From the IMG/VR virus record IMGVR_UViG_3300030101_002968, positions 50,894 to 70,893 of that record: 20,000 nt of DNA; one strand, given 5' to 3'. Source of the stretch: an uncultured virus (IMG/VR IMGVR_UViG_3300030101_002968). Its lineage: Duplodnaviria > Heunggongvirae > Uroviricota > Caudoviricetes. The notes below the pieces were generated by a model. It did not search any database. It was given only the letters and a program-made list of their open reading frames with translations, and was not told the origin of the DNA. Of the stretch, positions 9,193 to 17,063 are shown piece after piece (position 1 is the stretch's first letter; each line of letters opens with the position of its first letter). A program made the translations under genes and the position numbers.

Positions 9193-9446
9193 TCAACTAC
9201 AACAATATCTCTTATAGTTATTACATAATACATTTGATCTTTATGATCTATACCAAAACCAGCGTGTTTGTCATATCTTACAATATCTCCTTCGCTTAAA
9301 CCTTCTACAAGGTTTCCACAAGATATAACCTTTGCTCTTAAGTACCTATTGTCAGTGTCTGTATTTTCTGTTAATAACAAGCCAGACTCAGTTTTTCTTT
9401 CTTCTTTTAGCTTGTCAACTATTACAAAATTATTTATCGCCCTCAT
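9189..9446 (-). CDS. groES: Co-chaperonin GroES (Cpn10)
   Basis: 85 aa. MRAINNFVIV, mobile loop KTESGLLL, AKVISCG, GDIVRYDKHAG, DIVVV; adjacent to GroEL. Confidence 0.92.
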   Translation of the reverse strand: MRAINNFVIVDKLKEERKTESGLLLTENTDTDNRYLRAKVISCGNLVEGLSEGDIVRYDKHAGFGIDHKDQMYYVITIRDIVVVE

Positions 9447-11004
9447 CTAGTCTCATATTTGAAATTACACAATCTGCAGAAACAATAGTTGATACTACAC
9501 TCACTGCATTTTTGAGCGCCGATTTTGTAACCAAAACCGGATCTATAATACCACAATCAATCATATTAACTTTTTCACCAGTTACAACATCAATACCTTT
9601 ACCTTGTGTGTTAACCATATTAGGTCTTTCAATACCGGCATTGTCTAATATTGTTATGTAAGGTGAAACTATAGATTTTAATAATATTTCTTCACCCACC
9701 GCGTCAGCGGTGATTTTTGTAGAAGCATCTAACAAAGCTACACCACCACCTGATACTATACCTTCTTTCAAAGCAGCTTTAGTAGCGTATATTGCATCTT
9801 CTACTCTATCTTTCTTTTCTTTTAATTCTACTTTAGAATTAGCACCCACTTTGATGATTCCAACACTACCCGATAACATAGACAGTCTTTGTTCCAGTTT
9901 TTTCTTAATGAAACCATTTTTTTCGTTAGAAATGAGTTTTGATACGTGTTTGATTCTTTCGGGTAAAGCCTGTTGAACATCATCTATTGTGGTTATTACT
10001 GTTGTTTTTTCTTCTGTAACAGACAAAGCAGCTTCACCTAAGTGTTCTGGTGATATAAGGTCTAAATCATCACCAAGTTGTTCATCTATTACTGTTGCAC
10101 CTGTTAGTACAGCTAAATCTTCACATGTATTTCTTTTAGTAGGACCAAAGCCTGGTAAGTCAACCACATTAACTTTTATGTTACCTTTCACTTTGTTTGT
10201 TAGCAAAGCTGCTTTTACCTGCTGAGCAACTGGCGCTACTATTAATAAAGATCTGTTTTTCTTTATAACATGCTCTAAAACGTTTTGTATACGTCTTATA
10301 TTTGGTATTTCACTGTAAACTATTAGTACATGTGGGTTATCTAGCTCACATTTGTGTTTTTCTGTGTTTGTTACCCAATGTGGTGATGTTAAACCAACAT
10401 CTAACTGCACACCTTCAACAACATCTACATAAGTTTCGTTAGTTTCGCTCTCTTCCATAAAAACTACGCCGTTTTTACCAACTTTTGAGTATGCTTCTGC
10501 TATAATTTTGCCAAGTTCTGCGTCATTATTGCAAGATATTGTGCTTACGGCGTTCAAAAGATCATCTTTAACGTCTATTTTAACACTATTTAAGTAATTA
10601 TTGACTTTTTCTAGTCCAGAATTAAGACCTTGTTTAATTTCTCTTATAGAAACGTCTTTATAAGTGTCACTATTTATAGTTTTTATTAGTGATTCAGCAA
10701 GGACAGTAGCCGTAGTGGTACCGTCACCTGCTTCTCTCACTGTATTTTGCGCAGCTTCTTTAATTAAAGTTGCACCTATGTTTTCAACCGGATCATATAA
10801 GACTACGCTTTGCGCCACGGTTACACCATCTTTTGTTATGACCGGTTTGCCGCGTCCATCTTCGTACACTACGCACTTACCAGAAGCGCCTAACGTGGAC
10901 TTTACGGCTTTAGCTAGCTTTTCCACACCAGCAATTACTTTTTTCTTAGCGTCATTGCCAAAGTCTAACGACTTAACAATCTCGCTAGGGTTGTTATATT
11001 CCAT
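9430..11004 (-). CDS. groEL: Phage-encoded group I chaperonin GroEL
   Basis: 524 aa. TLGASGK, ITKDGVTVA, AGDGTTTATVLA (ATP site), KKDRVEDAIYATKAALKEGIVSGGG, GIIDPVLVTKSAL. No GGM tail. Confidence 0.97.
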   Translation of the reverse strand: MEYNNPSEIVKSLDFGNDAKKKVIAGVEKLAKAVKSTLGASGKCVVYEDGRGKPVITKDGVTVAQSVVLYDPVENIGATLIKEAAQNTVREAGDGTTTATVLAESLIKTINSDTYKDVSIREIKQGLNSGLEKVNNYLNSVKIDVKDDLLNAVSTISCNNDAELGKIIAEAYSKVGKNGVVFMEESETNETYVDVVEGVQLDVGLTSPHWVTNTEKHKCELDNPHVLIVYSEIPNIRRIQNVLEHVIKKNRSLLIVAPVAQQVKAALLTNKVKGNIKVNVVDLPGFGPTKRNTCEDLAVLTGATVIDEQLGDDLDLISPEHLGEAALSVTEEKTTVITTIDDVQQALPERIKHVSKLISNEKNGFIKKKLEQRLSMLSGSVGIIKVGANSKVELKEKKDRVEDAIYATKAALKEGIVSGGGVALLDASTKITADAVGEEILLKSIVSPYITILDNAGIERPNMVNTQGKGIDVVTGEKVNMIDCGIIDPVLVTKSALKNAVSVVSTIVSADCVISNMRLDEGDK

Positions 11005-11924: not shown

Positions 11925-11985
11925 TTTAAACATAATATTTTAAATTTTTTACATTTTTATATATTTTTATAATGACTATTTTTTT

Positions 11986-12021
11986 TACAAACTAAATACA
12001 TACGTATATAGATAATAATAA
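11986..12021 (+). promoter_or_regulatory. Early promoter-like repeat, copy 1
   Basis: TACAAACTAAATACA-N10-GATAATAATAA. Confidence 0.75.
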
Positions 12022-12110
12022 TGTAAATAAAATATAAAATAATTACAAAATGAGAGAAGTCGCGGAATATATACTAACTAAAATTTATAACTAAACAAAG
12101 TATATACTTT

Positions 12111-12146
12111 TACAATGTAAATACGACACTCAAAAGATAATATAAT
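12111..12146 (+). promoter_or_regulatory. Early promoter-like repeat, copy 2
   Basis: TACAATGTAAATACG-N10-GATAATATAAT, 28 nt before ATG 12175. Confidence 0.8.
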
Positions 12147-12174
12147 CAAACAATGTATAACTAATAAATATAAT

Positions 12175-12717: not shown

Positions 12718-12787
12718 AGTAACAGATAACTATACAGCAGAAGTAATAATATTGTTAGTAATATTACTAATGATTTTTACAAAATAA
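12710..12787 (+). CDS. Putative membrane micropeptide (25 aa)
   Basis: MRKVTDNYTAEVIILLVILLMIFTK*; overlaps the previous stop; hydrophobic C-terminus. Confidence 0.4.
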   Translation: MRKVTDNYTAEVIILLVILLMIFTK

Positions 12788-12813
12788 AAACAACTAGAGT
12801 TAGATAATATAAT
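12778..12813 (+). promoter_or_regulatory. Early promoter-like repeat, copy 3
   Basis: TACAAAATAAAAACA-N10-GATAATATAAT, 11 nt before ATG 12825. Confidence 0.8.
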
Positions 12814-12824
12814 AAAATTACAAT

Positions 12825-13939: not shown

Positions 13940-14148
13940 AGAATAATAGATTAAAAACAATGAACTGTATAACAGTATTAGATTTTGAAACAGGTTATGT
14001 ACACCAATATGACATTGGTTTTCAAGTAAATAAATTAGGTTGGAATCCTGACTGTGAGTCTTGTGAAGAATACTTAACAAGCAAAGGTCACAACTTAGCT
14101 AATATAAACTGGATGGTGCATAACAACGAGGAAATAATTACAAAATAA
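13936..14148 (+). CDS. Hypothetical protein
   Basis: 70 aa; ITVLDFETGYVHQY...EEYL...GH......WM. Confidence 0.75.
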   Translation: MKNNRLKTMNCITVLDFETGYVHQYDIGFQVNKLGWNPDCESCEEYLTSKGHNLANINWMVHNNEEIITK

Positions 14149-14174
14149 ATACAACACACTACAGATAATATATA
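14139..14174 (+). promoter_or_regulatory. Early promoter-like repeat, copy 4
   Basis: TACAAAATAAATACA-N10-GATAATATATA, 13 nt before ATG 14188. Confidence 0.8.
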
Positions 14175-14187
14175 TAAATAATATAAT

Positions 14188-14397
14188 ATGCAATGTAAAT
14201 GTAACAATATAATACCTCAAGGCCGTGTTAATCTTGGCTACAAAGTGTGCGTTGACTGCTCTACGACCGAGCAATACGGTTGCGCACCACTAATCAACCA
14301 CAAAACCGGTAATTCCATACAGATTATGTCAAGCAGTGACGCTGCGCGCATAGCTAAGTTAACTCGCCGCAGAGGTTATGGCACAATGTTAAGTTAA
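14188..14397 (+). CDS. TraR/DksA-type C4 zinc-finger protein
   Basis: CKCNNIIPQGRVNLGYKVCVDC approximates the C..C...IP..R.......C..C pattern of DksA/TraR zinc fingers. Confidence 0.65.
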   Translation: MQCKCNNIIPQGRVNLGYKVCVDCSTTEQYGCAPLINHKTGNSIQIMSSSDAARIAKLTRRRGYGTMLS

Positions 14398-14457
14398 TAA
14401 ATATGAAAATAAATGAAAAAACGTGGCCTTCAATAGAAGCCAGAATGAATCAAATAT

Positions 14458-14598
14458 ATGAAGAAGAAAAAATTAAATTCCAAAAATCCGAAATACATGG
14501 ACAAAAGCCTGTTAACAGACAGGAAAGTAATAAAAAGAGTAAAAATAGCCAACGTCAAAGGTGTTAAAATATCAGGCGTTTGGTATGAAGATGCTTAG
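14458..14598 (+). CDS. Small basic hypothetical protein (46 aa)
   Basis: MKKKKLNSKNPKYMDKSLLTDRKVIKRVKIANVKGVKISGVWYEDA*; a second-frame ORF 14403..14567 (54 aa) overlaps it. Confidence 0.55.
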   Translation: MKKKKLNSKNPKYMDKSLLTDRKVIKRVKIANVKGVKISGVWYEDA

Positions 14599-14614
14599 TT
14601 AGCATTGTTTTCAT

Positions 14615-14810
14615 GAGGCGAGGGTGGTAGCGCGTGAGACGTGTAGTTCCTTGCATCGAAGTACAGTCACAGCTTGAAATATAGTGCACGGCTGAGAAGA
14701 TCATAAGTGAACATCTTACTCACTTGGCAGAACGGCAGGATAAAGCAGATATACAACTTAAAGATAGGAACGTACTACTCGGTTGTATCGAACCACACCT
14801 GCCCCGCCTC
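14615..14810 (+). ncRNA. Unassigned ~196-nt structured RNA with several potential pseudoknots, followed by a T7 tract
   Basis: GC-rich intergenic island with closing stem GAGGCG/CGCCTC, internal stems GGCAGG/CCTGCC, AAGTGA/TCACTT, ATACAACT/GGTTGTAT and long-range pairs GTTCCT/AGGAAC, GTGGT/ACCAC. Confidence 0.75.
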
Positions 14811-14816
14811 TTTTTT

Positions 14817-14852
14817 TACAAACTAAATACAATAATAGAAAGATAATATAAT
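14817..14852 (+). promoter_or_regulatory. Early promoter-like repeat, copy 5
   Basis: TACAAACTAAATACA-N10-GATAATATAAT, 5 nt before ATG 14858. Confidence 0.8.
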
Positions 14853-14857
14853 TGAAT

Positions 14858-15127
14858 ATGAAAAAATTAACAACCGAAAAGGTAAAAAAATATATGGCTT
14901 GGCGAACTGACGAGCCAATGAGACATGATGCTGAGAGATTAGCTCATGCCTGCAATCAAGTTGCTATCGAGTTTCAACACGATAATGCTCTTGACTTGCT
15001 TAAGCTGTTGTGCTTCAACGATGCTATACACAGCCTGCACACTCACAGCTACAGTTTTAACACTGCAACAGGTAGACACTTAATAAATAGACTAAAAGAA
15101 TATTACTATGAGCAAACAGAATACTAA
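14858..15127 (+). CDS. Hypothetical protein
   Basis: The ORF track starts at TTG 14852; ATG 14858 just after repeat copy 5 is more plausible. Confidence 0.75.
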   Translation: MKKLTTEKVKKYMAWRTDEPMRHDAERLAHACNQVAIEFQHDNALDLLKLLCFNDAIHSLHTHSYSFNTATGRHLINRLKEYYYEQTEY

Positions 15128-15984: not shown

Positions 15985-16240
15985 TATAAATGAACTAGCT
16001 AATTTAATTGTTAGTAAATTAATATCACAAACAAAGTCAATGGACGAATTTATACAAGAAATCGAACAAAAATCTGTTATTGATACACTAGAACTAGACG
16101 AAGAGTGCCTAACACTAGGCGAAGTTGCTAGACTGTATACTATGATGGATATATGTAAACAAGATGAACAGTATGAAAAATGTGCCATAATTAAATCAGA
16201 AATAGATAGATGCAAACAAATACTAAAAAAATACAAATGA
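15971..16240 (+). CDS. Helical protein with a C-terminal UVR (UvrB/UvrC)-like motif
   Basis: 89 aa; MDICKQDEQYEKCAIIKSEIDR resembles E.YE.AA.IRD.I. Confidence 0.6.
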   Translation: MTKDNINELANLIVSKLISQTKSMDEFIQEIEQKSVIDTLELDEECLTLGEVARLYTMMDICKQDEQYEKCAIIKSEIDRCKQILKKYK

Positions 16241-17063
16241 GAAAAAAACCAATGTTAGCTTACCCTGTAAGCGATAAACCAATAGACTATACTAAACCAG
16301 TATTTATACAACCAAAGCTTGACGGCGTTAGGTGTTTGATACAGTATGAAGGTGGTGGTATATGCAAAGCATATTCACGCACAGGTAAAGTATGGCAAAA
16401 CATTGACCATATACTAATAGAACNNNNNNNNNNAATGTAATACTCGATGGCGAATTATATAATCACGATTTTAAAGACGATTTCGAGTCTATCATATCTA
16501 TGGTCAGAAAAACAAAACCAACAGACGAGGACAGATCTATATCACGTCACAACGTACAATTTCATTGTTATGATATAGTTGATGAAGATATGCGCTTTGA
16601 TGATCGTGCTGAGTTTATCGCAAAGCATGTTCCTGAAAGTTATTGTGTACATCACGTTGAAACATTACAAACTGATGAAGCAAGTGCTAACTTTATTCAC
16701 ACACAAAACAAAGAAGCAGGTTACGAAGGTTCAATACTTCGTTCTAACAATAAATATCAATGCAAACGTTCACATGCCCTACGTAAATTTAAAGACTTTA
16801 GCGATGCCGAAGCTACGATCGTAGGCTACTTAGATGGTAAAGGCAAAAGGACTGGCACGCTTGGCAAGTTCATAATGATGGACGACAATGGTGTAGAGTT
16901 CGGGTGTCCACCGGGCAAAGGTTATACTTACAAACAACTTGGCACAATGTTAGAGAACATTGGCGACTACATCGGTCAACGTGCTACCTTTACCTTCTTT
17001 GAACGTACTAAAGCAGGCAGTTACAGACACCCATTATTTAAATGTATTAGAAATTATGAATAG
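16237..17063 (+). CDS. ATP-dependent DNA ligase, one gene interrupted by a 10-N assembly gap (16424-16433)
   Basis: PMLA; motif I QPKLDGVR; NVILDGELY right after the gap; FHCYD; GYEGSILR; KRS..LRKFK; OB-fold end YRHPLFKCIR. Confidence 0.93.

Follow-up and report, generated by a model that had tools for sequence, protein, structure and literature searches.

Which product, if any, does an ORF-poor gap near the end of a phage genome encode? The window analysed here, 20,000 nucleotides in length, is the last 20 kb of the complete 70.9 kb genome of an uncultured phage (IMG/VR record IMGVR_UViG_3300030101_002968), and within it a gap of 260 nt separates a 46-aa open reading frame (ORF) ending at 14598 from the next ATG at 14858. 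An original prediction, made from the letters alone, had placed a G+C-rich island with a structured noncoding RNA in this gap, at 14615-14810. The island is real: the G+C content of the RNA stretch is 0.45 against about 0.30-0.35 in the surroundings, and the short ORFs that overlap the gap showed no conservation of frame among the relatives. The individual sequence elements listed in that prediction were all found in their places. Homologues and covariation bear out a conserved structured RNA on the + strand, and on this comparative evidence 14615-14810 (+) is a genuine structured noncoding RNA, representing a new family without a match in Rfam 15. Together with the U run behind it (14615-14817 +), we tentatively interpret the element as an uncatalogued small RNA of about 200 nt from uncultured marine phages, which would act in trans as a stable RNA. 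This reading ranks first, followed by a cis-acting 3′-end element and then by a ribozyme or aptamer and a self-assembling RNA, and it is held with clear reserve.

Relatives gathered from viral and metagenome contigs amounted to at least about 85 distinct ones (labels such as L072 and L044 denote the retrieved relative loci of this study), and the window's own 70.9 kb genome contained a single copy. Nhmmer and a covariance model (CM) located the RNA in 10 of the 42 syntenic loci fetched via the ligase gene, in every case about 2 kb upstream of that gene. Scans of viral contigs with exact patterns recovered at least 44 elements, at least 30 of them distinct, and a two-gap pattern matched 6 viral and 73 metagenome loci (79 matches), yielding 54 distinct forms that lack the first of two inserts, termed V1 below. 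The two-gap pattern prescribed the strands of a candidate helix, P2, and another scan left P2 free. A weak CM match at L014:3376-3516 proved on inspection to be a diverged family member, and the core was absent on inspection from a CM match in L015 (E 0.18). A core-variant scan with the 3′ block returned at least 120 loci, about 15 of which belonged to the family and had the usual middle block without exception, the others being G+C-rich coding DNA. The scan GGATAAAGC..AGAACCAC returned at least 119 loci, 10 of them family members and the others unrelated, including about 35 copies of one gene start.

Two pattern scans of prokaryote genomes, one per species across 185,579 species, found no family member; the first gave 0 matches, and the 2 given by the second were both G+C-rich coding stretches without the 3′ block. 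Among cultured phages, a blastn query of 301 nt matched none of 50,697 records, and megablast likewise found no match for the region. Scanned with Rfam 15 at gathering scores, the 20 kb window as a whole had 0 matches; a scan of 14400-15000 that admitted E up to 10 returned noise only (snR43, ST7-AS2 and miRNA precursors), and 10 relatives had 0 matches at E up to 0.1. ARAGORN found no tRNA or tmRNA in the window or in the whole 70.9 kb genome, and on the loci of 15 relatives it reported nothing save one ordinary tRNA-Arg far off in L008; no GGTTCGATTCC-like T-loop site was present at one mismatch or fewer. The original prediction had likewise been unable to match the RNA to tRNA, tmRNA, RNase P, group I/II introns or known riboswitches, and its novelty stands after the covariance-model scan. 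No description of the family was found in Rfam or in a narrow search of the literature on EGFOA and Cellulophaga phage noncoding RNA.

The conserved part of the RNA measures only about 55 nt and consists of the common blocks GGGUGGU, ACGGCAGGAUAAAGC and AGAACCAC-R-CCUGCC, framed by a helix of variable sequence; of the 196 nt in the window's RNA, about 140 belong to two hairpin inserts that are optional and interchangeable. L072:429-495, the shortest form found in nature (67 nt with flanks), runs from P1 through GGGUGGUUUUAAC, GGCAGG, a 17-nt loop and CCUGCC back to P1, and the invariant loop of the core reads AUAAAGCA..AGAACCAC. In the window the core is arranged as follows.

14615..14620, + strand: 5′ strand of P1, GAGGCG, pairing with 14805-14810.
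14621..14623, + strand: J1/2, an A followed by a GG that is near-invariant in the alignments.
14624..14628, + strand: 5′ strand of P2, GUGGU, a candidate pseudoknot strand, invariant and complementary to 14792-14796.
14731..14733, + strand: J2/3, AAC, near-invariant in the alignments.
14734..14739, + strand: 5′ strand of P3, GGCAGG, pairing with 14798-14803.
14740..14750, + strand: J3/4, the invariant AUAAAGC and then AGAU, invariant alignment columns.
14789..14791, + strand: J4/2, CGA in the window's RNA, against a family consensus of AGA in the alignments.
14792..14796, + strand: 3′ strand of P2, ACCAC, invariant.
14798..14803, + strand: 3′ strand of P3, CCUGCC, pairing with 14734-14739.
14805..14810, + strand: 3′ strand of P1, CGCCUC, pairing with 14615-14620.
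14811..14817, + strand: a run of seven T, the putative terminator tail behind P1; most relatives have CUCGUUUU here.

Pairing in P1, P2 and P3 was counted in a MAFFT alignment of 58 V1-less sequences. In this alignment 97.0% of cells were paired, against 36-51% when the partners were slid by 1-3 columns; both-side changes occurred at 8 pairs, and 0 of 500 shuffles reached any of the observed measures. The closing helix GAGGCG/CGCCTC, proposed from the outset together with the T run behind it, is P1, in which 6 of 7 pairs vary on both sides. Its unpaired cells fall mainly in the outermost pair or in three sequences with P1 shifted by one column, and in a direct search a P1 helix of at least 5 bp was present in 30 of the 30 distinct viral forms listed, in 18 versions. 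The predicted GGCAGG/CCTGCC stem, P3, was likewise upheld, since all of its cells (100%) are paired, with compensatory changes at 2 of 6 pairs and G-U intermediates at 4 pairs. The compensations are G-C to A-U in four sequences (L421, L446, L447 and L479) and C-G to U-A in two (L421 and L432), and also in L014. J1/2 is one G shorter in the divergent L014 and L432. Read on the opposite strand, the G-U pairs of P1 and P3 would become A-C, which places the RNA on the + strand, and the U run and the orientation of the neighbours (flanking genes and downstream tRNAs) argue for the same strand, the flanking genes lying on the + strand as well. The minimum free energy fold of the whole stretch was not better than that of shuffles (z -0.97; opposite strand -1.15).

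The remainder of the RNA is made up of the two inserts. The V1 site lies between GGUGGU(U)A and AAC, and the V2 site between AUAAAGCAAAA and AGAACCAC.

14629..14730, + strand: V1, an optional inserted domain of 102 nt, missing in many relatives.
14629-14645 and 14713-14730, + strand: semi-conserved base of V1, GUGAG 14634-38 with CUCAC 14719-23.
14646-49 and 14709-12, + strand: inner stem within V1, GUUC with GAAC.
14664-68 and 14690-94, + strand: cassette helix within V1, CAGUC with GGCUG.
14751..14788, + strand: V2/P4 hairpin, stem ATACAACT (14751-58) with GGTTGTAT (14781-88), loop 14759-80.

In V1-less members GGUGGUU-UAAC-GGCAGG is contiguous, and V2 is missing in L072, L052 and L060. The ATACAACT/GGTTGTAT stem of the original prediction was recovered as P4: 57 of 61 distinct V2 inserts close with at least 4 bp in a fixed register, in 46 versions, whereas mismatched partners do so in 35%. 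Judged by these comparisons, the P1, P3 and P4 pairings are established. At the base of V1, GUGAG/CUCAC becomes GUAAG/CUUAC in L044, one compensatory change. The proposed hairpin GCGCG-TGAGA-CGTGT competes with this base helix and is not supported, and neither is the proposed AAGTGA/TCACTT stem, which uses a variable segment. By contrast, the CAGTC/GGCTG stem gained support, becoming CAGTT/GACTG in the sole close relative of the cassette. For at least five hairpin cassettes (20-55 nt), nearly identical copies stand in V1 of one phage and in V2 of another; the cassette in the window's own V1 has counterparts in V1 of L044 and within V2 of L040.

The same cassettes were also seen on other RNAs. 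Cassettes that are V1 inserts elsewhere occur on stand-alone hairpin RNAs, each with a CGAGG/CCUCG-type stem and a U run of its own; these RNAs lie at L095:525-600 (reverse strand of the locus) and downstream of the RNA in L054 and L063. There are, in addition, larger RNAs with a D-arm-like start, long inserts with the same cassettes and a T-arm-like end, GAGGUUCGAUUCCUC, plus a short acceptor-like strand (L006:2880-3090, L058:500-665, L063:600-790, L014:3520-3620 and L008:3440-3520), and these were recognised by neither ARAGORN nor Rfam.

Relatives of the RNA are found in arrays with tRNA-Asp genes and tRNA-like RNAs. Of 60 metagenome loci, 13 have a same-strand tRNA gene downstream, and 12 of these 13 are tRNA-Asp(GUC); no more than about 8 nt separate P1 from the tRNA start in 7 metagenome loci, and L338 is alike. 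L058 carries two tandem copies of the RNA.

In the reading that we tentatively prefer, P1 closes the RNA, and P3, adjoining the 3′ strand of P1, could stack with it into about 12 bp. In the shortest form the P3 loop is the invariant 17 nt, whose 3′ part AACCAC could pair with the invariant GUGGUU between P1 and P3 to form P2. J2/3 and the P3 loop accept the phage-specific hairpin inserts V1 and V2, exchanged as cassettes. The RNA would come from the end of a short early operon, or from within arrays with tRNA-Asp genes and tRNA-like RNAs, and its 3′ end would lie at P1 and the U run or at the tRNA that follows. We infer that it accumulates as a separate RNA composed of a handle and its cargo. 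The invariant knot would provide the fold, protect against nucleases and/or be recognised by a constant partner, and the work would fall to the variable hairpins, which evolve fast.

Several observations weigh against this reading, and the first group of them concerns P2. The pairing GUGGU/ACCAC, crossing GGCAGG/CCUGCC, is the sole pseudoknot candidate of the conserved core. Its strand order is that of an H-type pseudoknot (a-b-a′-b′), in which helix b (P3) is compensated and helix a (P2) is invariant: both strands of GUGGU(U)/ACCAC across P3 are the same in every member, including L014 and the scan that left P2 free. Since P2 never varies, the sole argument for the pseudoknot is the complementarity of two invariant strands. 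There are also nested rivals to P2, namely GGGUGG/CCUGCCC, which extends P1, and GG-GUGGUU/AACCAC-R-CC, and RNAfold, which cannot draw knots, favours nested forms in minimal members. The first of these rivals tolerates the changes on the 3′ side of P3, but leaves the matched changes on the 5′ side unexplained and loses two pairs in L014 and L432. Furthermore, by our own reasoning, P2 and P3 cannot stack coaxially within one molecule of a minimal member because of a 1-nt link and a J2/3 of 4-5 nt. By the same reasoning, P2 and P3 could lie side by side, with J1/2 (N-GG) along the groove of P3; the GG and the two adjacent P3 pairs are invariant, as this arrangement would lead one to expect. Alternatively, P2 could be formed between molecules.

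The second group concerns partners, setting and expression. In the phage's own genome 7-mer complements of the invariant core are not enriched, and Pfam and PHROG scans of the phage's ORFs identified no partner protein. The window's own phage has 0 tRNA genes, and its RNA follows two small ORFs and itself carries a putative terminator, which also fits a cis-acting 3′ element. As for expression, RNA-library contigs (4 runs, 3 studies) cover 14552-14851 and leave the flanking ORFs uncovered save for a low-depth piece at 14300-14374; one 231-nt contig corresponds to 14589-14818, that is, the RNA through its U run, and fragments in run X16 have a depth of 13-34. These runs were picked for holding part of the query, assembled contigs give no ends, strand or level, and DNA carry-over is possible, so that the coverage, which speaks for the reading, is a hint of expression and no proof. 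The original prediction had suggested looking for a discrete species of about 200 nt in metatranscriptomes: the contigs do cover the RNA and hardly its flanks, but show no discrete ends. Window parts without RNA-library cover were not taken as evidence of absence.

Possible, though unlikely, is a cis-acting 3′-end element of the upstream mRNA, in which P1 and the U run would terminate transcription, the knot would shield the 3′ end and the inserts would be neutral decoration. The following features of the locus bear on it.

14458..14598, + strand: conserved lysine-rich ORF of 46 aa (MKKKKLNSKNPKY...KVYGVWYEDA), directly upstream of the RNA.
14138..14175, + strand: promoter-like two-part repeat, ahead of the small operon that the RNA closes.
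14816..14853, + strand: next promoter-like repeat copy, directly behind the RNA and ahead of the ORF starting at 14858.
11985-12022, 12110-12147, 12777-12814, 14138-14175 and 14816-14853, + strand: all copies of the two-part repeat in the window; none lies elsewhere in the 70.9 kb genome.

The order of these features suits a 3′-end element, the RNA standing directly after a conserved small ORF and being followed by the T run and the next promoter-like repeat. CUCGUUUU stands behind P1 in most relatives, and the alternative pairing GGGUGG/CCUGCCC would extend P1 to a terminator stem of 12 bp. P1 with the T run by itself forms a 6-bp stem (5 G-C) with a U run, unlisted by a terminator scan limited to loops of 3-8 nt. 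However, some relatives have no U run and continue within a few nucleotides into a further hairpin RNA or a tRNA gene, and because of these members and the tandem pair in L058 the RNA is not only a terminator. The upstream genes vary from locus to locus, the invariant single-stranded core and the covariation of P3 exceed what a terminator needs, and the RNA-library contigs cover the RNA and not the upstream ORF. The downstream neighbours vary as well, being an unrelated ORF in the window and a coiled-coil-like ORF, further small RNAs or tRNA-Asp elsewhere.

Regarding the upstream ORF, an ORF ending in G[VIL]W[YF] lies directly upstream in at least 17 of the 70 family loci with enough upstream DNA, the window included, a lower bound because AVWY variants escaped the regular expression. 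The 46-aa ORF has no Pfam or PHROG match, and its product is a possible RNA-binding partner of the RNA, or the ORF is merely syntenic. A programmed frameshift suspected here from two conserved frames was discarded, the second frame being the conserved 46-aa ORF itself. The two-part repeat consists of TTACAAAnTAAATAC, 10 nt and AGATAATATAAT (which begins with AGATAATATA), and its 5 copies occur on the + strand only and in the early region only; 20 nt at 11980-11999 are identical to 14811-14830. It matches neither the sigma-70 nor the usual Bacteroidetes consensus. The repeat is probably the early promoter of the phage, and if it is read in this way, the RNA would stand last in a unit some 640 nt long.

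A catalytic or ligand-binding RNA is improbable. Here the knot and the invariant junctions would form an active site or pocket, for example that of a self-cleaving ribozyme freeing precursor RNAs, or that of an aptamer. Covarying helices with invariant junctions, a pseudoknot and optional peripheral hairpins are typical of small ribozymes and aptamers, and this pattern is seen here, with P2 as the candidate knot; the RNA also sits in multi-RNA precursors beside tRNAs. On the other hand, no Rfam ribozyme or riboswitch matched, even with the minimal form at E up to 10, and the absence of a constant downstream gene speaks against a riboswitch. The 231-nt RNA-library contig, which begins 26 nt ahead of P1, crosses the whole RNA without interruption. 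A resemblance to twister was also set aside, with no twister or other ribozyme family found even at E up to 10.

As improbable as the catalytic RNA is a self-assembling one, in which GUGGUU and AACCAC would pair between molecules to give dimers or larger bodies, by analogy with EGFOA, ROOL and GOLLD. This would suit the steric awkwardness of P2 and P3 inside one minimal molecule, and the best Rfam neighbour of the minimal form, though insignificant, is EGFOA (RF02955). EGFOA was the sole Rfam neighbour of the minimal member L072, with 10.3 bits and E 6.6 against a gathering score of 37.7, and there was none in the window. In both RNAs an outer stem encloses a variable hairpin, which corresponds in position to V1, and directly after it comes a stem whose 17-nt loop is conserved (.UAAAGC.AGA.CC..); 11 of 17 loop letters are identical to L072, a likeness without statistical significance. 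In our own reading, the 3′ part of the loop has a possible upstream partner in both. Unlike the RNA described here, EGFOA has a 5′ domain (model positions 1-45) made up of a conserved single strand and a small hairpin, for which no counterpart was found, the alignment spanning positions 46-108 only, and the candidate loop partner lies inside P1 here and outside the outer stem in EGFOA. Moreover, the family covariance model R1 finds nothing at the matching place of the 5 confirmed EGFOA loci tested, and self-pairing alone would not explain why P2 never covaries. The window RNA is not a member of EGFOA on these comparisons, and the likeness may be due to chance or to a shared loop motif.

EGFOA itself occurs in IMG/VR viral contigs: 5 of the 18 loci fetched by the EGFOA loop pass the Rfam threshold (L495, L504, L505, L507 and L512). 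GOLLD and ROOL are 500-800 nt long. They resemble the present family in their variable peripheral parts and their proximity to tRNAs, and differ in that Rfam models exist for both and found no match here. EGFOA RNAs are putative small RNAs of large gene-free regions and are reported to form trimers and strand-exchanged dimers (bioRxiv 10.64898/2026.07.01.735769), and GOLLD and ROOL are described as phage and prophage RNAs that often lie near tRNAs and are perhaps co-transcribed with them (PMC5737381).

Highly improbable is the fold originally proposed, a single 196-nt structure whose hairpins are tied to one another by crossing loop-loop contacts in an unusually dense network. Its best evidence lies in the P4 loop, 18 of whose 22 nt are covered by matches of at least 5 nt complementary to V1, a coverage that 0.6-0.9% of shuffles reach; the statistic was, however, chosen after the fact. 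A high score (p 0.006) was also obtained for L044, which alone among the relatives shares this V1 cassette, and at the homologous V1 site L044 has AAGAAC/GUUCUU where the window has AGUAC/GUACU, so this one contact may be genuine. Across the family the contacts are at chance. The three proposed loop-loop contacts lie in the variable V1 and V2, and the longest complementarity between cognate V1-V2 pairs is 5.25 nt (n=20), against 5.61 nt in 374 non-cognate pairs. Among the 20 members with both inserts, 18 are not above shuffles, and with the whole V2 only L044 beats them at p < 0.05, the window having p 0.12. Many members have no V1, the cassettes move independently, and the core is only about 55 nt. 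The covariation expected of the predicted helices was found for P1, P3 and P4, and the V1-V2 contacts did no better than chance. Lastly, a short protein-coding frame or a DNA-level site instead of an RNA gene has a practically negligible chance. Short ORFs do overlap it, but the inserts differ in length between members (0 to about 140 nt for V1, 5 to 108 nt for V2), cassettes are replaced wholesale, length shifts are not multiples of three, and the G-U pairs are strand-specific and accompanied by compensatory changes.

Returning to the stable trans-acting RNA, two further known systems invite comparison. In phage T4, rnaC and rnaD (species 1 and 2) of the tRNA cluster are small structured RNAs among tRNA genes, probably co-transcribed with them and processed. 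The adjacency to phage tRNA genes holds for relatives of our RNA (the 13 of 60 loci mentioned above) and not for the window genome, and blastn detected no sequence likeness to any cultured phage record. To our knowledge, an invariant knot with two cassette sites has not been described for the T4 RNAs. The other comparison, which is our own, is with the shape of tRNA: P1 takes the place of the acceptor, P3 adjoins the 3′ strand of P1 like a T stem, the P3 loop would pair behind the 5′ strand of P1 as the T-loop does with the D-loop, and V1 stands at the place of the anticodon arm. The RNA has, however, no T-loop sequence, anticodon loop or CCA, and ARAGORN finds nothing; judged by its sequence, it is not a tRNA.

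A bolder extension, unlikely enough to count as speculation, is that the knot of about 55 nt is a natural RNA display scaffold, which would fold by itself and perhaps assemble by itself (through an intermolecular P2), or serve as a partner-recruiting handle for the cassettes. If so, marine phages would share a library of cargo hairpins across a few stable chassis, including tRNA-like RNAs and stand-alone stems; decoys for proteins of host defence or RNA processing would be one example of such cargo. Many small structured RNAs lie near tRNA genes in phage genomes, and their functions have been obscure for decades. An invariant core combined with freely covarying helices points to a specific fold or partner, and cassettes that move between two sites of one RNA and between chassis represent an unusual mode of modular RNA evolution. 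With a shortest natural form of about 55-67 nt, the RNA is small enough for probing, crystallography and cryo-electron microscopy. The family would also enlarge Rfam and improve the annotation of marine viromes, in which the stretch now appears as an empty gap.

The 70.9 kb record further codes for tail fibres, a holin, GroEL, a split ATP-dependent DNA ligase, an Erf recombinase and a sigma-like protein. The ligase gene is distributed over at least two ORFs, at 16210-16440 and 16500-17063 of the window (+) with a 59-nt gap between them, and both match consecutive stretches of one PHROG profile (positions 215-279 and 312-500); the split could be due to a frameshift, an intron or a truly split gene. 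The GroEL-type chaperonin is encoded at 9430-11004 of the window (-), matches phrog_5725 (E 2e-131) and shares about 40% identity with the GroELs of Cellulophaga and Flavobacterium phages. Judged by this GroEL, the phages that host the RNA family are distant kin of the Cellulophaga and Flavobacterium phages.

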